DNA of 64,000 nt. Origin: Dehalococcoidia bacterium. GTDB lineage: Bacteria; Chloroflexota; Dehalococcoidia; Lucifugimonadales; UBA3495. The position numbers were made by a program, and so were the translations under genes. The notes under the pieces were generated by a model. It was not told the DNA's origin and did not search any database. It was given only the letters and a program-made list of their open reading frames with translations. The stretch's first letter is position 1. Each line of letters starts with the position of its first letter. Below are positions 14,095 to 58,180 of this stretch, piece by piece. The stretch spans positions 2,647,356 to 2,711,355 of the forward strand of contig OY763072.1 of the NCBI GenBank assembly GCA_963666865.1, given 5' to 3'.

Positions 14095-14121
14095 GTCATT
14101 CCGGCGAAAGCCGGAATCCAG
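14095..14121. repeat. dispersed repeat, A-type arm GTCATTCCGGCGAAAGCCGGAATCCAG (solo)
   Basis: Same unit as at 18044, 55990 and other sites. Internal hairpin TCCGGC-GAAA-GCCGGA. Confidence 0.7.
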
Positions 14122-18043: not shown

Positions 18044-18106
18044 GTCACTCCGGCGAAAGCCGAAGTACAGCGGCGTTTTCTGGATTCCGGCTTTCGCCGG
18101 AATGAC
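18044..18106. repeat. dispersed MITE-like repeat (63 bp, A-arm / spacer / inverted A-arm)
   Basis: GTCACTCCGGCGAAAGCCG...CGTTTTCTGGATTCCGGCTTTCGCCGGAATGAC. Same architecture as 55990-56052. Confidence 0.75.
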
Positions 18107-51703: not shown

Positions 51704-52465
51704 TCAGCGGTTGGCCAACTGCCGCACGGCGCCGGCGACGCCGGAAAGATCATCCACCGCCGCATCCGCCTGGCTGTCGGGATCGTCTGGATCTTCCGGT
51801 TCGTAAAACCCGCGAATCCAGATTGATTTCATCCCCACTCGGTTCGCTCCAACCACGTCGTTAGCCACGTGGTCGCCGACGTGGATGGTCCCTTGCGGTG
51901 TTGAACCCAGCGAATTCATCGTCATCATAAAAATTTCGTCAGACGGTTTCGCCAGCAAAACCTCATCGGAAAAAGTCAGGGTGTCAAAGAAACCCAGCAG
52001 GTCGTGCCTCCGCAGAAACTCTCGGAAGGTGTAACCCGGGGTCATGCCGGTGTTGGAAATCAGGCCGATCCTGAGTCCCAGATTGTGAACCGACTCCAGA
52101 GTGTCACGGGTGGCTTCGTGGAAACGGGGCGGGTAGTCGAAAAAGGATTCGGCGTAGATGCGCTCGATTTCGGCGATGGTGGGTTCGGGCAAACGCGCCA
52201 CCAGCCCGTCCTCAATCAGGTTGATGAAAATCTCCACTTGGGTGCGAAAACTCACGTCCTTGTTGGTATTGCGCACCTCGCGGCAGGCTCGATAGCAGCC
52301 TCGGTACGCCTCCCGAATGTGGTCCGGGTCGAAATCCGCCCCCTGCCCGGCCAGCAAATCGCGAGCGCCGTCCAGCCGCACTTGCGCGCGTTTCAGCCCA
52401 AGCTCCCGGTTGTCCAGGATGAGCGTTTGCCAGAGATCGAAGGTGACGGCGATGATGTCAGCCAC
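51704..52465 (-). CDS. HAD-family hydrolase
   Basis: AVTFDLWQTL (DxW variant of motif I) ... ISNTG ... HVGDHVANDVVGA. Confidence 0.7.
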   Translation of the reverse strand: MADIIAVTFDLWQTLILDNRELGLKRAQVRLDGARDLLAGQGADFDPDHIREAYRGCYRACREVRNTNKDVSFRTQVEIFINLIEDGLVARLPEPTIAEIERIYAESFFDYPPRFHEATRDTLESVHNLGLRIGLISNTGMTPGYTFREFLRRHDLLGFFDTLTFSDEVLLAKPSDEIFMMTMNSLGSTPQGTIHVGDHVANDVVGANRVGMKSIWIRGFYEPEDPDDPDSQADAAVDDLSGVAGAVRQLANR

Positions 52466-52501
52466 GAAAATATCCGATACCTTTGGAGTGCTTGCCGACG
52501 C

Positions 52502-53914
52502 CTACAGCGGCGGTCGCCTGGTGTGCCAATCGTTAGCCTGCTGGTACGCGTAAGCCGCCCGCAACACCGTGTGTTCGTCAAAGTTGCGGCCGGCCAGGTG
52601 CAAGCCCACGGGCAAACCATCGGAGGCAAACCCGCACGGCACCGATATGGCCGGCGACCCGGTGATGTTGTACACCCGGGTGTACTTGGTCAACGACGGC
52701 ACCGCGGGCAACGACTGGCCCGCGATGTCGATGCGTCGTTCCAACAACACGGGCGCCGTAACCGGCTCCACCGGGCCGGCCAGCAGGTCAACGCCCTCCA
52801 GCAGCTCGGCCACCTGTCCGCAGAAAACCTGTCGCGCCTGCTGCGCGCGGAGGTACTCCGCCGCCGAAATGAACAGCCCCTCCTCCAGGCGTTCTCGCAC
52901 CTGCGGATACAACTTGTCCCCGTCGCTCAGAAGCAGATCCCGGTGGGCCGCAGTGGCTTCCGCGCTGAGAATAGCGTTGCTGATGGGCTGTGCATACTCG
53001 TACAGGGGCAGAGAGACGTCCACGATCTCCGCGCCCAGTTCACCGAGTACGCCGATGGCGCGTTGGGTCAGTTCGGCCACTTCCGCGTCGATCTCCGTCT
53101 CAAAGTATTCTCGGACTATGCCGATGCGCAGGCCGCGTACGTCTCCGGTAAGGGCGGTGGTGTAGTCCGGTGCCGGCACGTCAACCGTCGCGTGATCCCT
53201 GGCGTCAACTCCGGCGATAGCATTCATCGCCAATGCTGCGTCCTCCACCGTCCTCGTCATCGGCCCCGGATGGTCCAGACACCACGACAGCGGCGTCAGC
53301 CCGGCCCGGCTCACTCGCCCGTAGGTCGGTTTCAGGCCAACAATCCCGCACAGGGCGGCCGGGATTCTCACGCTGCCGCCGGTGTCGCTCCCCATGGTGA
53401 TGGTGCACTGCCCGGCCGCCGCCGCCGATCCGCTGCCCCCGCTGGACCCGCCGGTGATCCGCTCGGGGTTCCACGGGTTGTGCATGTGTCCGTAATCGGC
53501 GTTCTCCCCCGTGGGGCCGAAGGCCAGCGGGTGCATATTGAGCTTGCCCAGCAGTATGGCTCCGGCCCGGTTGAAACGGGTCGCTACCGTACAGTCTTCA
53601 GTTGGAGTGTAGGTGTCGTAGAGCCGCGTACCCGACGTGGTGCGCACGCCGGCTGTGTTGAACAGGTCCTTCAGGCCCACCGGAATGCCGTGCAGCGGGC
53701 CACGATAGCTGCCCCGGCCAATCTCCTCCTCGGCGCGACGGGCCGCCGCCCGCGCCGGTTCTGCCAGAACGGTGATGAACGAGTTGAGCACGGGTTCGGT
53801 AGATTCAATCCGCGTCAGGCAGGCGTTAATCACTTCAACCGGGGAAACCTGCCGGTCACGTATCAACCCGGACAGTTCCCAGGCTGACATATAGTGGAGT
53901 TCGGATCCCGCCAT
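52502..53914 (-). CDS. amidase (amidase-signature family, GatA/AtzE-like)
   Basis: GIPVGLKD...GGSSGGSGSAAAAG...GSDTGGSVRIPAALCG. Has SWCLDHPGP rather than the GatA-type ASSLDQ. ATG 53914 follows GAGGTG. Confidence 0.8.
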   Translation of the reverse strand: MAGSELHYMSAWELSGLIRDRQVSPVEVINACLTRIESTEPVLNSFITVLAEPARAAARRAEEEIGRGSYRGPLHGIPVGLKDLFNTAGVRTTSGTRLYDTYTPTEDCTVATRFNRAGAILLGKLNMHPLAFGPTGENADYGHMHNPWNPERITGGSSGGSGSAAAAGQCTITMGSDTGGSVRIPAALCGIVGLKPTYGRVSRAGLTPLSWCLDHPGPMTRTVEDAALAMNAIAGVDARDHATVDVPAPDYTTALTGDVRGLRIGIVREYFETEIDAEVAELTQRAIGVLGELGAEIVDVSLPLYEYAQPISNAILSAEATAAHRDLLLSDGDKLYPQVRERLEEGLFISAAEYLRAQQARQVFCGQVAELLEGVDLLAGPVEPVTAPVLLERRIDIAGQSLPAVPSLTKYTRVYNITGSPAISVPCGFASDGLPVGLHLAGRNFDEHTVLRAAYAYQQANDWHTRRPPL

Positions 53915-53940
53915 TATCACCTCTTGGGAATGGCCGGCTG

Positions 53941-54144
53941 CTACCGGCGAACCGGCACGAATGCCGACGGCGATTCCGCGCCGGAAACGTCGATTTCATA
54001 GAGGCGGGACAAACCCTCCCGCATGAGGTTCACGCGCCGCCGTAAATTCTCCATCGCTTCCGTGTCGGAAGTATCCAGGCCGGCCGCTTCAGCCACTCTC
54101 AAAAACCCCGTTTCGGAAAGCGGGGTTTCCCTGTCTGTGGACAT
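53941..54144 (-). CDS. GatC/AtzG-like small protein
   Basis: 67 aa. AEAAGLDTSDTEAMENLRRRVNLMREGLSRLYEIDVSGAESP fits the GatC pattern (LxLseeE...L..l.evD..g.eP). Confidence 0.5.
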   Translation of the reverse strand: MSTDRETPLSETGFLRVAEAAGLDTSDTEAMENLRRRVNLMREGLSRLYEIDVSGAESPSAFVPVRR

Positions 54145-54296
54145 AATTCCTCGCTCGCGCTCCAGGCAGGGTTCTTACCGTCCCGGCGCGACGGCTGCAT
54201 TATGGCGTAACCCGGCACCATTGGCAAATGACCCGCGCGAACGCGGCTATACTTAACGCGAAAAACGCCCACGGGCCATTTCGCAAGCTTTCCATC

Positions 54297-55070
54297 ATGA
54301 TTTCGTACTGTACCAAATGCGGCAAGACGCTGCCGTCCGAGTCAACTGCCTGCGCCGCCTGCGACCCCGTTCTCGACTCACCGCCGGCGCAGTGCATCCA
54401 GGCCCGCCGAGCGAGTTGGGGGTTCGGGCCGGTCGCCCTGGGCGTTATCGCCCTGATCCCGACGGCCCTGCTGGTGGCCTCGTTGGCCCTGCTGATTCCC
54501 CTGCCGGTGGCAACCGTTGTATCGGCGACATTGTTGGGCGGTGCGCAGATCTTCCTGGTCTGGCTGCTGGCGATGCGGACCTGGCCGCCGCCACTGGCCG
54601 CCGTCGGCCTGACGCGCCCCAGGTTATCGTACCGCAGCACGGCGTTTTTCGCCGCCGGCGCCATCGCGGGCAGCCTGTTGTTCGCCCAACTGTACACGAC
54701 GGCGGCAACCGCGCTGGATTGGACTTTCCTGCTGCCCCCGGAGTTGCCGGACGAACTGCTGCTGCCCGGAGCCGCCGCGATCCTGAGCGTCTTGGCCCTG
54801 GCGGTTTTGACGCCCATCGCCGAGGAGATTTTCTTTCGCGGCTTCGTCCAGCGCGGTCTGGTCAACCGGTGGGGACCGGTTCCGGGATTGGTTGTCTCGG
54901 CCGCCGTGTTTTCAGGATTGCATTTCTCGCCGGCAGTGCTCCTGCCGGTGTTCGTCACCGGTCTGCTGCTGGGAGCGCTCTATTGGTACACTCGCTCACT
55001 GTGGCCGTGTATCGCAGTCCACGCCGCCCAAAATTTCGTGGCAGTGCTCACGATAATGCTGAGGCTGTAG
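54297..55070 (+). CDS. CPBP-family intramembrane glutamic endopeptidase with N-terminal zinc ribbon
   Basis: YCTKCGKTLPSESTACAACD, multiple TM segments, EEIFFRGF, FSGLHF, HAAQNF. Confidence 0.75.
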   Translation: MISYCTKCGKTLPSESTACAACDPVLDSPPAQCIQARRASWGFGPVALGVIALIPTALLVASLALLIPLPVATVVSATLLGGAQIFLVWLLAMRTWPPPLAAVGLTRPRLSYRSTAFFAAGAIAGSLLFAQLYTTAATALDWTFLLPPELPDELLLPGAAAILSVLALAVLTPIAEEIFFRGFVQRGLVNRWGPVPGLVVSAAVFSGLHFSPAVLLPVFVTGLLLGALYWYTRSLWPCIAVHAAQNFVAVLTIMLRL

Positions 55071-55137
55071 AAAATTCCTGACCCGACCGAGTGGTAAGAT
55101 AAATCGTCCGACAACGCAACCAACATCGGGGTTTTAC

Positions 55138-55950
55138 ATGGCGACCCAACCTGCTACCACCACCGACCGCATCGCCGCCAAGTTCGCGTCCATCAAGTCT
55201 GAAAATCGCCCTGGCCTGATTCCTTTCGTCACAGTTGGCCATCCATATCCGGATGCCGCCTTGGAGGTAGTGCCACGCCTGGTTGACGCCGGCGCCGACG
55301 TCATCGAGCTGGGCGTTCCCTTCAGCGATCCCATCGGGGAAGGTCCGGTCATCCAGCAATCCAGCTACGTGGCGTTGCAGAACGGCGTGACCACCAGGGA
55401 GTGCCTGGACACGGCCGCAGCTCTGCGCCCTCACGTCGGCGACACCCCTTTGATCCTGATGGGCTACTACAACCCTCTCCTGTCCTACGGCCTGCAACGT
55501 TTCGCCGCCGATTGCGCCGCCGCTACCGTGGACGGTCTCATCATCGTTGATCTTCCCAGCGTAGAGGCCGGTGCCCTGGTCGCCCAAACCGCCCCCTACG
55601 GCATTCACCTGATACCGCTGCTGGCGCCCACGAGTACGGACCAGAGCATCGCCCGGTCGGTGAGCATTGGAGGTGGGTTCGTGTACTGCACCAGCGTGGT
55701 GGGAATCACCGGCGCTCGCTCTGAAGTATCCGGTCGCGGCTTCGATCTGGTTGACCGAGTCCGACAACATACCGACCTTCCCATCACCATCGGTTTCGGC
55801 ATATCGCGCCGGGAGCACGTCCTCGAAGTAGGCAAACGCGCCGATGCCGCCGCGGTGGGAAGTGCCCTCGTCAGCGCACTGGCCGACGGCCCCGACCATG
55901 GCGCGGCGGAGCGCGGTGCCAGAGTTGTCGCCGAACTCGCCGGCCGATGA
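55138..55950 (+). CDS. trpA: tryptophan synthase alpha chain
   Basis: LIPFVTVGHP...IELGVPFSDPIGEGPVIQ...GFVYCTSVVGITG. Confidence 0.9.
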   Translation: MATQPATTTDRIAAKFASIKSENRPGLIPFVTVGHPYPDAALEVVPRLVDAGADVIELGVPFSDPIGEGPVIQQSSYVALQNGVTTRECLDTAAALRPHVGDTPLILMGYYNPLLSYGLQRFAADCAAATVDGLIIVDLPSVEAGALVAQTAPYGIHLIPLLAPTSTDQSIARSVSIGGGFVYCTSVVGITGARSEVSGRGFDLVDRVRQHTDLPITIGFGISRREHVLEVGKRADAAAVGSALVSALADGPDHGAAERGARVVAELAGR

Positions 55951-55989
55951 ATCTCAAAAGGACTTATGCAGTTGAGGGCCTTCACACAC

Positions 55990-56052
55990 GTCATTCCGGC
56001 GAAAGCCGGAATCCAGTAGCGTTTTCTGGACTCCGGCTTTCGCCGGAGTGAC
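55990..56052. repeat. dispersed MITE-like repeat (63 bp, A-arm / spacer / inverted A-arm)
   Basis: GTCATTCCGGCGAAAGCCGGAATCCAGTAGCGTTTTCTGGACTCCGGCTTTCGCCGGAGTGAC. Confidence 0.75.
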
Positions 56053-56094
56053 GGACCTGCTGTTTTGCACAGCCCTGTAATTTGTCAGTATCCG

Positions 56095-56123
56095 TTGACA
56101 ATATCCTCGTGCGGGGTTAGGAT
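56095..56123 (+). promoter_or_regulatory. sigma70-like promoter, TTGACA - 17 nt - TAGGAT
   Basis: TTGACA at 56095-56100 and TAGGAT at 56118-56123. The expected transcription start of about 56130 lies just before the leader ATG. Confidence 0.5.
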
Positions 56124-56132
56124 TTCTGTGCA

Positions 56133-56237
56133 ATGAGTACCGCCTGCCGCCAAATCTCATACGGTTATTACCGCCCCTTCTGGTTTTACGCTTACCGCCG
56201 CCCGGTAGGCGAGCATCCGGCGTGGGAAACCCGTTAA
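56133..56237 (+). CDS. candidate leader peptide MSTACRQISYGYYRPFWFYAYRRPVGEHPAWETR (aromatic-codon run)
   Basis: 34-codon ORF read directly. Of 12 consecutive codons (56160-56195), 8 are Tyr, Phe or Trp. No SD sequence, but the ATG is about 10 nt from the -10 hexamer (leaderless-type). Confidence 0.45.
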   Translation: MSTACRQISYGYYRPFWFYAYRRPVGEHPAWETR

Positions 56238-56260
56238 ACTTGGTGACAACCACTTTGGCA

Positions 56261-56297
56261 GGACTTCAGCCGGATGCAGGCTGAAGTCCTTTTCTTT
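56261..56297 (+). terminator. intrinsic terminator / attenuator upstream of the DAHP synthase gene
   Basis: GGACTTCAGCC (56261-71), a 7-nt loop, GGCTGAAGTCC (56279-89), then TTTTCTTT. Confidence 0.65.
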
Positions 56298-56359
56298 GGG
56301 AAACAGCCTGAACTCACCGGCGCCAGCGGCGAACCTTTCGACAATGGAGGATGAAAAAG

Positions 56360-57409
56360 ATGGCAATCTCACCGGCAAAAGATGTGAACGTAATGAGCAA
56401 CAACGCCTTGATCCGTCCGTCGGAACTGGAGGAGCGCATTCCCCTCAGCGCCACCGCTGAAGCCACCGTCCTCGAGGGACGGCGACAGCTTGAGGCCGTC
56501 CTCAACGGCGAGGACGAGCGCTTTGCCGTCATCGTGGGCCCTTGCTCCATACACGATCGGTCCGGCGCTCTGGACTACGCCGAGCGGCTCAAGCCCCTTG
56601 CCGACCGGCTCAGCGACCGGATCATGATCGTCATGCGGGTTTATTTCGAGAAGCCCCGCACCACTGTTGGCTGGAAGGGCCTGATCTACGACCCTAATCT
56701 GAACGACACCTATCAGATCGAGGACGGTCTGCATCGCGCCCGCCAAATCCTGATGGACCTCTCCGAAGCCGGCCTCTATTCCGCCACCGAATTCCTGGAC
56801 CCCATCGTGCCGCAGTACGTGGCCGATCTGGTCACCTGGGCGGCCATCGGAGCGCGTACCACCGAGAGCCAGATCCATCGCCAGATGGCGTCCGGCCTGT
56901 CCATGCCCGTTGGCTTCAAGAATGGCACCGACGGTGATCCTCAGACCGCGGTGGACGCCCTCGTCGCGGCCGGCACGCCGCAAGCGTTCCTCGGCATCGA
57001 CCATGATGGACAGGCTTCCATTGTCGAAACTCGCGGAAACCCCAACTGCCACTTGGTCATGCGCGGCGGGCGCAGCGGCACCAACTTCGACGCCCGTTCC
57101 GTCGCCGCCGCCGCCGAGTCCCTGCGCAAGGCTGACGCTCCGACCCCCATCTTGATCGATTGCAGCCACGGCAACTCCAACAAAGACCACACCCGCCAGC
57201 ACATCGCCTTCCGCGACGTCCTGGCCCAACGCCTGGAGGGCAACCCGGACCTGATCGGTGTGATGCTGGAGAGCAATATCAACGCCGGCGCGCAGAAGCT
57301 CGGACCGAACCCCGCCGAACTGGAGTACGGCGTCTCCATCACCGACTCCTGCATCGGTTGGGAGGAAACGGTGGAGCTGTTGGATTGGGCCTACGACCGG
57401 TTGGGCTAA
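56360..57409 (+). CDS. aroG: 3-deoxy-7-phosphoheptulonate (DAHP) synthase, class I (AroFGH type)
   Basis: FAVIVGPCSIHD...MRVYFEKPRTTVGWKGL...IDCSHGNS. Start ATG 56360 (GGAGG 9 nt upstream) or ATG 56351. Confidence 0.88.
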   Translation: MAISPAKDVNVMSNNALIRPSELEERIPLSATAEATVLEGRRQLEAVLNGEDERFAVIVGPCSIHDRSGALDYAERLKPLADRLSDRIMIVMRVYFEKPRTTVGWKGLIYDPNLNDTYQIEDGLHRARQILMDLSEAGLYSATEFLDPIVPQYVADLVTWAAIGARTTESQIHRQMASGLSMPVGFKNGTDGDPQTAVDALVAAGTPQAFLGIDHDGQASIVETRGNPNCHLVMRGGRSGTNFDARSVAAAAESLRKADAPTPILIDCSHGNSNKDHTRQHIAFRDVLAQRLEGNPDLIGVMLESNINAGAQKLGPNPAELEYGVSITDSCIGWEETVELLDWAYDRLG

Positions 57410-57464
57410 GAGGCGGCCTCCCCGGCTGACTGACCACCGTATCGTCACAAGCGTTCCCATTGAC

Positions 57465-57504
57465 GGGTCGGGACGGGTTGGCAACCCGTCCCGACCTATT
57501 TTTG
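57465..57504 (+). terminator. intrinsic terminator after the DAHP synthase gene
   Basis: GGGTCGGGACGGGTT..AACCCGTCCCGACC followed by TATTTTT. Confidence 0.7.
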
Positions 57505-57507
57505 CCG

Positions 57508-57516
57508 TGCTATAAT
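57508..57516 (+). promoter_or_regulatory. extended -10 promoter element TGcTATAAT
   Basis: TG at 57508-09 and TATAAT at 57511-16, about 80 nt upstream of the GNAT gene. No good -35 hexamer. Confidence 0.4.
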
Positions 57517-57595
57517 CGACGAAAACGTGTGACATAAACTAGCGCAACCGGGCGTCCCCACATCAACCGCCGTTGCAGTTTGAGGAGGCCGGAAT

Positions 57596-58180
57596 ATGTT
57601 CCCCCAAGTTAGCCTGACTAACGAGGTTTCCCGAGACGACGTTTCGCGAGTGCGCGATTGGCTTCGCGATCCCGAAGTCAGTTCCCTGTGGTACGGCACC
57701 GACGACTCCGACGGTCACGCCCTCCACATCGGGTACTCCCCCGAAACTATCCAAGAGGCCGAAGACGCCGAATGGCATCAGGTTTTCAACCAGGATGAGC
57801 GGCGTATCTACTCCATCTACTCCACCGACGAAGCCCATATCGGCGAGGGACAATTGCTCGTCGAGTGGCCCCTGGAAGAAGCCCAACTCTTCATTCTCAT
57901 CGGCCGCAAGGACCTCTGGCACCATCATTACGGCACGGCAGCCCTGGTTTCCCTGCTGGATGAGGCTTTCGACAACCTGGAACTGCACCGGGTCTGGGTG
58001 GATGTTCCCGAGTACAACGAACACGCCCTGCAGATGTTCCGCCACCTGGGGTTCGTTCTGGAGGGTCATCTGCGCCGCACCCACCGCAAGGACGGCAATT
58101 GGTACGATTCCTTTGCCATGGGCCTCCTGGTCGATGAATACCACCGCCGCCGCAGTCGGGTGCTGGCACAATACGCCTGA
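57596..58180 (+). CDS. GNAT-family N-acetyltransferase
   Basis: GAGGAGG before the ATG. HHHYGTAALVSLLDEAFDNLELHRVWVDVPEYNEHALQMFRHLGF. Confidence 0.75.
   Translation: MFPQVSLTNEVSRDDVSRVRDWLRDPEVSSLWYGTDDSDGHALHIGYSPETIQEAEDAEWHQVFNQDERRIYSIYSTDEAHIGEGQLLVEWPLEEAQLFILIGRKDLWHHHYGTAALVSLLDEAFDNLELHRVWVDVPEYNEHALQMFRHLGFVLEGHLRRTHRKDGNWYDSFAMGLLVDEYHRRRSRVLAQYA

Follow-up and report, generated by a model that had tools for sequence, protein, structure and literature searches.

A candidate tyrosine-dominated leader-peptide attenuator upstream of DAHP synthase in Dehalococcoidia

In Corynebacterium glutamicum, a leader peptide containing Phe-Tyr-Phe is encoded ahead of aroF, the gene for one of two 3-deoxy-D-arabinoheptulosonate 7-phosphate (DAHP) synthases (Mentz 2013, PMC4046766). 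According to the account in PMC11802643, which cites Neshat 2014, this leader, aroR, attenuates aroF transcription in response to Phe-tRNA, with Phe and not Tyr as the signal, and the title of Morbach 2000, as cited in PMC4046766, has C. glutamicum leader peptides made without a ribosome-binding site. In the pheL-pheA and trpL-trpEDCBA systems of Escherichia coli, a regulatory codon run is combined with a terminator and with an antiterminator 5' strand that is freed by a stalled ribosome. Here we describe an element of similar build between trpA and a DAHP synthase gene in a 64,000-nucleotide (nt) stretch of DNA from a Dehalococcoidia bacterium (contig OY763072.1; this whole stretch is referred to as the window). 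We read the element as a ribosome-mediated leader-peptide transcription attenuator controlling DAHP synthase, with a probability that we put at roughly 0.85. Ribosome geometry aside, the defining features of an attenuator that can be looked for in silico are present. The same reading had been proposed in a first-pass annotation of this DNA, and it is now supported by an identical architecture in relatives with very different peptide and RNA sequences, as well as by co-variation of the leader with the terminator arm. That annotation had also taken attenuation of a DAHP synthase gene to be undescribed in such a lineage; aroR/aroF is a known case in C. glutamicum, but no attenuator description for Chloroflexi or Dehalococcoidia was found in the literature searched, which was mostly without subscription journals.

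The element resembles aroR/aroF in that a short open reading frame (ORF) with aromatic codons stands directly before a DAHP synthase gene, and in its predicted control by ribosome-mediated transcription attenuation. It differs in its host (Chloroflexota/Dehalococcoidia, as opposed to Actinomycetota), in its 4-8 aromatic codons with a 2:1 excess of Tyr over Phe, where aroR has Phe-Tyr-Phe only, and in its regulated unit, which is monocistronic. An origin independent of aroR seems likely given the phylogenetic gap. With pheL and trpL it shares the codon run, the terminator and the antiterminator 5' strand (region 2), which a stalled ribosome would free. Unlike in those systems, the start lacks a Shine-Dalgarno sequence and is leaderless-like, and the 9-nt core of region 2 is found within the ORF, at 14-22 nt upstream of its stop codon, not immediately past it. 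In addition, it is chiefly the loop and the top of the terminator that the antiterminator overlaps, the structure formed by regions 1 and 2 (1:2) competes weakly, behavior without translation may differ, and the target is the entry enzyme of the common pathway rather than of a terminal branch.

The anatomy of the leader could be read directly from the sequence (Table 1). The previously annotated promoter, TTGACA-17-TAGGAT, was confirmed; it matches the consensus at 10 of 12 positions and is the sole sigma-70-like site within 55000-58000. By chance, 0.9 promoter-like and 2.1 terminator-like matches are expected per 3 kb, and a single match alone is not significant. The promoter and terminator matches carry weight because they are conserved in relatives: 24 of 32 related loci have a perfect or near-perfect TTGACA at the corresponding position, and an equivalent terminator was found in 31 related loci. 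The ATG at 56133 is separated from the -10 hexamer by 9 nt, close to the earlier estimate of about 10, and there is therefore no room for a Shine-Dalgarno sequence. This spacing is also typical of the relatives, being 6-13 nt (mostly 7-10) in 24 of 32 loci, while the leaders of a low-G+C SAR202-like subgroup have a 5' untranslated region (UTR) of ~20 nt instead. All 32 leaders start with ATG, and DAHP synthase starts with GTG in several of the same genomes; because each leader start was picked by eye, taking the ATG closest to the promoter, the all-ATG count is weak support. These features suggest that the leader mRNA is leaderless or carries a 5' UTR of 0-4 nt, with near-leaderless initiation. 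Attenuator transcripts of C. glutamicum are reportedly leaderless as well, which matches the spacing between the -10 hexamer and the ATG seen here.

The ORF of 34 codons contains a run in which 8 of 12 codons are aromatic, as annotated. This is a rare arrangement: among 98,552 stop-free 12-codon segments in the six frames of the 64 kb, at least 7 aromatic codons were counted only in five overlapping ones, at 56154-56166. The leader as a whole folds better than its shuffles (z=-2.2). A scan of the whole window for other combinations of leader peptide and terminator, for any amino acid, returned nothing convincing.

Table 1 Features of the leader and its surroundings in the window (MFE, minimum free energy; region numbers follow the attenuator convention used in the text).
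Feature	Positions	Strand	Basis or remark
trpA	55138-55950		gene upstream of leader
-35 hexamer of leader promoter, TTGACA	56095-56100	+	promoter scan
-10 hexamer, TAGGAT, 17-nt spacer	56118-56123	+	promoter scan; TAGGAT or TAGCAT in related loci L001-L005
Leader ORF, 34 codons, MSTACRQISYGYYRPFWFYAYRRPVGEHPAWETR	56133-56237	+	ATG 9 nt after -10 hexamer; stop at 56235
Regulatory codon run, YGYYRPFWFYAY; 8 of 12 aromatic (5 Tyr, 2 Phe, 1 Trp)	56160-56195	+	proposed ribosome stalling zone
Region 1 and 1:2 hairpin, 9-bp stem 56189-97/56203-11	56180-56211	+	MFE structures
Region 2, antiterminator 5' strand (putative): GCATCCGGC (56213-21) plus weak pairs at 56223-26 and 56230-31	56213-56231	+	
Small hairpin GUUAAA..UGGU GACA ACCA.UUUGGC, spanning the stop codon, inside the antiterminator	56233-56258	+	MFE structures
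Intrinsic terminator hairpin, 12-bp stem, 7-nt loop	56260-56290	+	scan; -22.1 kcal/mol
Region 3, terminator 5' arm and loop	56260-56278		
Region 4, terminator 3' arm	56279-56290		
U-tract TTTTCTTT	56291-56298	+	read directly after hairpin
Shine-Dalgarno sequence of DAHP synthase gene, GGAGG	56346-56350	+	read from sequence; L002-L005 have AGGAGGA at this place
DAHP synthase gene, type I-alpha, AroF-like (likely start)	56360-57409	+	Pfam DAHP_synth_1; relatives begin M-A-I
Strong terminator closing the DAHP synthase unit, 15-bp stem	57465-57497	+	terminator scan

Attenuation at this locus would proceed as follows. The transcript would begin with the leader AUG or no more than a few bases from it, and the 34-codon leader would then be translated, probably through leaderless initiation. 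Under a shortage of charged tRNA-Tyr (and tRNA-Phe), the ribosome would stall within the codon run, so that region 2, which begins 17 nt past the last aromatic codon, is left free in the RNA behind the polymerase. Free region 2 would pair with the terminator 5' arm and loop (56260-56277) before the 3' arm is made, resulting in read-through into DAHP synthase. When the aromatic tRNAs are charged, the ribosome would reach the stop codon, cover the 3' part of region 2 and melt the small hairpin at 56233-58; the local terminator would then form, and transcription would end at the U-tract, near 56298.

Alternative RNA structures are expected to be available to such a leader. The hairpin first described as 11 bp long is present together with its U-tract, and its stem is extended to 12 bp by an additional A-U pair. 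Likewise, GCATCCGGC (56213-56221) is, as claimed, the exact reverse complement of GCCGGATGC (56269-56277). In a transcript truncated before the 3' arm, this 9-bp helix is continued by pairs 56223-26/56265-68 and 56230-31/56261-62 to give a long irregular hairpin enclosing 56233-58; a small hairpin comparable to the enclosed one was found in L002-L005. The full transcript instead folds into the terminator and the hairpin 56189-97/56203-11, which an optional outer stem (56180-83/56217-20) can lengthen. In another possible pairing, 56198-205/56217-25, the CCGG core of region 2 is sequestered as well. The 1:2 hairpin, which is only partly conserved in L002-L005, with mismatches there, may act as a competitor or as a pause hairpin. 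As a classical 1:2 competitor, the stem 56189-97/56203-11 was rejected: it shares no position with the 9-nt antiterminator strand, and mismatches have eroded it in L004 and L005. A role as a pause or auxiliary hairpin is possible.

A functional leader is expected to be retained in relatives, which were collected by a scan of one genome per species. Identity of the DAHP synthase is 95% in OY762251.1, 85-88% in four further metagenome-assembled genomes (MAGs), one of which is Chloroflexi bacterium isolate SB0662_bin_27 (L003), and 56-64% in about 20 more Dehalococcoidia/SAR202 genomes. A common layout is present in 20 of 26 Dehalococcoidia/Chloroflexota DAHP synthase loci and in 12 metagenome loci: a strong promoter is followed, within a few bases of its -10 hexamer, by the ATG of a 13-34-codon ORF that contains a Tyr/Phe run, and a G+C-rich hairpin and its U-tract come next, a short distance ahead of the DAHP synthase gene. 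Apart from the aromatic run, which places 4-8 aromatic residues in 8-12 codons across 32 loci, the leader peptides are unrelated (MKFATASFYFSTYAYFSGTHAAD, MIEVTANTYFGYYFYRTGCEAVG, MKITWDGCGYCCYFFTGCQPVGEGLVC, MYYGYWYFFTGWHKAGGDLLR, MIQNYFTYYYYFKKRRANCRV, MNKNYYTYYYFRLTESF). Within the window's subgroup, one aromatic residue replaces another (W17 to F or Y, Y13 to F) while the flanks drift, a pattern that selection for codon identity over peptide sequence would predict. A comparison of orthologous upstream regions, proposed in the first-pass annotation, thus bears out conservation of the ORF and of its aromatic run.

Controls and loci from other phyla gave few matches or none. When four or more aromatic residues in 8 and a terminator further downstream were required together, 31 of 152 upstream regions qualified; among their reverse complements 3 of 152 did so, and among other chunks of 409 nt, 7 of 1611. 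None of the matches is in a cyanobacterial, verrucomicrobial, planctomycete or other such locus. The full layout was found in 0 of about 50 loci from other phyla. No weaker aromatic leaders were seen in the actinobacterial and other non-Dehalococcoidia loci checked; the only actinobacterial locus fetched (L076, from Nocardiopsis) has no such leader.

A switch between terminator and antiterminator would fit any attenuator in which the leader RNA binds a metabolite, a tRNA or a protein (T-box-like, TRAP-like or a riboswitch), and an ORF without a Shine-Dalgarno sequence could then be incidental and untranslated. T-box riboswitches, which occur on aromatic amino-acid genes in Firmicutes and are also reported in Chloroflexi, share with the present element, as read here, a response to tRNA charging and an antiterminator/terminator switch upstream of amino-acid genes. 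However, in a cmscan search of 54000-58000 with E up to 10, no Rfam family was matched, including the leader families (Trp_leader RF00513, His, Leu, Thr) and the T-box, and only spurious miRNA-type matches outside the leader were returned. The ~130 nt from transcript start to terminator are far shorter than a T-box leader and too short to hold one, there is neither a T-box motif nor a (G/U)AG repeat array, and sensing here would take place through codon translation rather than direct tRNA binding. Furthermore, no aptamer-like sequence is conserved between subgroups; what is conserved is an in-frame ORF, rich in TAY/TTY, at the start of the transcript, and controls show this enrichment to be specific for frame and strand. 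We therefore regard an RNA-binding mechanism as very unlikely.

If the leader/terminator-arm pairing acts as an antiterminator, it is expected to be maintained as the sequences diverge. In other subgroups, a partner strand located 10-25 nt after the aromatic run pairs with the upper terminator 5' arm and loop, for example through CUGCCGG/CCGGCAG in L014 and L015, UGUCGGCUG/CAGUCGGCA in L008 and GAAGGGGC/GCCCUUUC in L082. Between subgroups, which are too divergent for a single alignment, one double change (C-G in L009, U-A in L017) and several wobble-compatible single changes were seen. Within the subgroup of the window, the upstream comparison yielded no clean example of a strictly compensatory change in the 9-bp helix, and alignment-free shuffle and swap tests were therefore used instead. 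The leader/terminator-arm duplex of the window has an energy of -22.2 kcal/mol (z=-3.6, p about 0.003 against dinucleotide shuffles), and the mean shuffle z over 20 loci is -1.74. When leaders were swapped among 19 subgroup representatives, each terminator arm ranked its own leader at 4.4 on average, where 10 is expected, a result that 0 of 20,000 permutations equaled (p<5e-5). Controls with reversed or shuffled arms of the same composition gave mean ranks of 8-10. These results support selection on the leader/terminator-arm pairing as an antiterminator.

The effect of ribosome position was assessed with a footprint model, which is crude; the measure kept was co-transcriptional, namely the pairing that the 5' arm enters before the 3' arm has been transcribed. 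When the stall is set in the early or middle part of the run, a fraction of 0.56-0.98 of the 5' arm is pre-paired, compared with 0.01-0.53 for a ribosome at the stop codon, and the difference holds in each of the 20 loci. It is lost in L006, L012, L019 and L020 if the stall is moved to the last aromatic codon. Folding with ribosome-covered segments masked, as the first-pass annotation had suggested, thus gives the expected direction of pre-pairing for early and mid-run stalls. At equilibrium, on the other hand, the terminator wins: partition-function folding of the complete transcript with masked footprints showed no switch and was rejected as a switch test.

Leader ORFs have also been proposed to have roles beyond attenuation (PMC4833913), and the leader could be translated for general transcription-translation coupling, ribosome loading or production of a functional micropeptide, with its aromatic bias incidental. 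Formation of the antiterminator in silico without stalling would be compatible with such a role. Yet the aromatic run is the only conserved feature of the peptide, it is extreme, it matches the product of the pathway, and in every subgroup it lies just upstream of the antiterminator strand. A translated leader that does not sense amino acids is, in our estimate, slightly less probable again than an RNA-binding mechanism.

Expression of DAHP synthase would depend on passage through the terminator. The distance from terminator to gene is 24-122 nt; of the 18 genome-collection loci that show the layout, 11 fall within 24-52 nt, as do 13 of the 30 genuine loci overall. In the window, 62 nt lie between the U-tract and the gene start, and the scan found no promoter-like site in 56298-56350. 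Given this short gap without a second promoter, DAHP synthase would be expressed only by read-through. Least probable of the three alternatives is an independent small gene with its own terminator followed by a separately transcribed DAHP synthase gene: the terminator is indeed strong and favored at equilibrium, and gaps of 106-122 nt in L001, L009 and L015-17 could accommodate a promoter, but the short gaps of many relatives are filled by the Shine-Dalgarno region, the peptide is conserved in aromatic composition only, the leader co-varies with the terminator arm, and L010 has lost ORF and terminator together while its promoter is kept directly before the gene.

Several observations weigh against the attenuator as drawn. 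Of the terminator, the 9-bp helix takes in no more than 3 nt at the top of the stem's 5' arm (56269-71) and 6 loop nt, less overlap than was implied when the two helices were first called mutually exclusive; terminator arm and loop are indeed overlapped, but for exclusivity, steric constraints and the weaker pairs 56223-26/56265-68 and 56230-31/56261-62 must therefore also be invoked. The full 9-bp helix is peculiar to the window and L001, L002-L005 having a 5-7-bp CCGGC/GCCGG core with other flanking pairs, and some helix changes in relatives are non-compensatory. With the segment limits used, no significant duplex was obtained for L006, L012 and L019. Region 2 lies upstream of the stop codon, and a ribosome positioned there (~56220-56249) covers only its 3' edge, not the whole of 56213-21 as had been proposed. 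For a start that is leaderless in the strict sense, 9-10 nt from the -10 hexamer to the ATG is a little long. A Trp codon, W31 (56223-56225), lies inside the antiterminator 5' strand, where stalling would favor termination, opposite to the effect of the main run; W31 occurs only in the window, L001 and L005, and is probably incidental because it is not conserved.

The folding results bear on the same question. At equilibrium, the complete transcript favors the terminator (P about 0.9-0.99) at nearly every modeled ribosome position, so antitermination must be kinetic, and the element would be a kinetic switch, as in E. coli trp. In addition, the antiterminator forms in silico in truncated transcripts without any ribosome. 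The models suggest that the untranslated default may be read-through, unlike the super-attenuation of E. coli trp. Taken with these points, the exact antiterminator pairing and ribosome geometry given here are probably correct, at a lower confidence than the attenuator itself.

The codons of the run indicate which amino acids are likely to be sensed. A mixed sensor of Tyr, Phe and Trp had been suggested for the window; the aromatic run stands, but over 32 leaders it is composed mainly of Tyr and then Phe (Y 126, F 63, W 11). The enzyme was identified as a type I DAHP synthase (Pfam DAHP_synth_1, E=1e-84), and its closest solved relative is the Tyr-sensitive AroF of E. coli (6AGM). Its Gly212 aligns with a Gly of AroF, whereas the Phe-sensitive AroG has Ser211 there, and we take this position to be equivalent to G226 of yeast Aro4. 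In Aro4, G226S turns Tyr regulation into Phe regulation (Hartmann 2003, as described in PMC9733642). Sensor and enzyme would both point to tyrosine first and phenylalanine second.

The longest ORF of the DAHP synthase gene begins with the ATG at 56351, directly after GGAGG. A second ATG, at 56360, has proper Shine-Dalgarno spacing and gives an N-terminus like that of the relatives (M-A-I). The gene likely starts at 56360, and automatic annotation may over-extend it by three codons. The regulated unit is closed by the terminator at 57465-97 and is therefore monocistronic. No complete trp operon was found near the locus; trpA is preceded by a CAAX protease gene, with an amidase gene on the opposite strand. 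The amidase gene (52502-53920, minus strand, E=3e-117) is overlapped by a 627-codon plus-strand frame at 52004-53887 for which Pfam gave no match, probably a spurious high-G+C shadow ORF. A palindrome (55989-56053) whose 28-nt arms, CGTCATTCCGGCGAAAGCCGGAATCCAG and CTGGACTCCGGCTTTCGCCGGAGTGACG, are 93% complementary lies between trpA and the leader promoter. It is a dispersed repeat with other copies in the window at 14100-14119 and 18049-18101 (5 matches, 0.01 expected); it looks like a repetitive extragenic palindromic (REP)-like or miniature inverted-repeat transposable element (MITE)-like sequence, and it may terminate or insulate trpA transcription.

Some related loci deviate from the common layout. 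Compared with L009 and L013, L010 (OZ242009.1, 2930-2975) has a deletion of ~190 nt that removed the leader ORF body and the terminator, including the T of the ATG, and brought the retained promoter directly before DAHP synthase. L010 thus appears to be a natural attenuator-deletion, constitutive variant. A Dehalococcoidia subgroup without an aromatic leader at DAHP synthase (L018, 2860-2925; L024, 2880-2925; L069, 2865-2915; L087, 1335-1385) has in common the intergenic motif CTGTTTACGCGCC..GGCAGCG.TAGC....CTAT.GCTAGCC, to which L090 shows a weaker, more distant resemblance; this motif may be a different regulatory site. In L069, the sole leader-less locus with ORFs listed, DAHP synthase follows trpA and a 124-aa ORF, which, read by eye, is presumably an AroH-type chorismate mutase. 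In L001, ~4 tandem copies of a 15-nt unit, CGAACCCTTGACCAG, lie between the attenuator and the DAHP synthase start (2925-2995); they are absent from the window.

This type of attenuator is known, the same enzyme is already attenuated in Corynebacterium, and the textbook mechanism is unchanged. What appears to be new is its occurrence in Dehalococcoidia/Chloroflexota, with a Tyr bias, an apparently leaderless start and a family of more than 30 divergent examples. We lean towards regarding this as the first recognised family of ribosome-mediated attenuators in Chloroflexota, class-wide (Dehalococcoidia including SAR202-type lineages), independently evolved, leaderless and Tyr-dominated, with the antiterminator strand inside the leader ORF and with termination perhaps the translation-dependent state. 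Dehalococcoidia, among them marine SAR202 and sponge-associated lineages, are abundant and mostly uncultured, and their gene regulation is almost unstudied. The 30-odd divergent examples, including the natural deletion in L010, provide a comparative set for the evolution of attenuator geometry. If the proposed mechanism is true, classical attenuation would extend beyond Proteobacteria and Actinomycetota, and Dehalococcoidia would have close transcription-translation coupling and probably leaderless mRNA translation. Carbon entry into their shikimate pathway would then be set mainly by the charging of Tyr- and Phe-tRNA, matching an enzyme that itself looks Tyr-sensitive.

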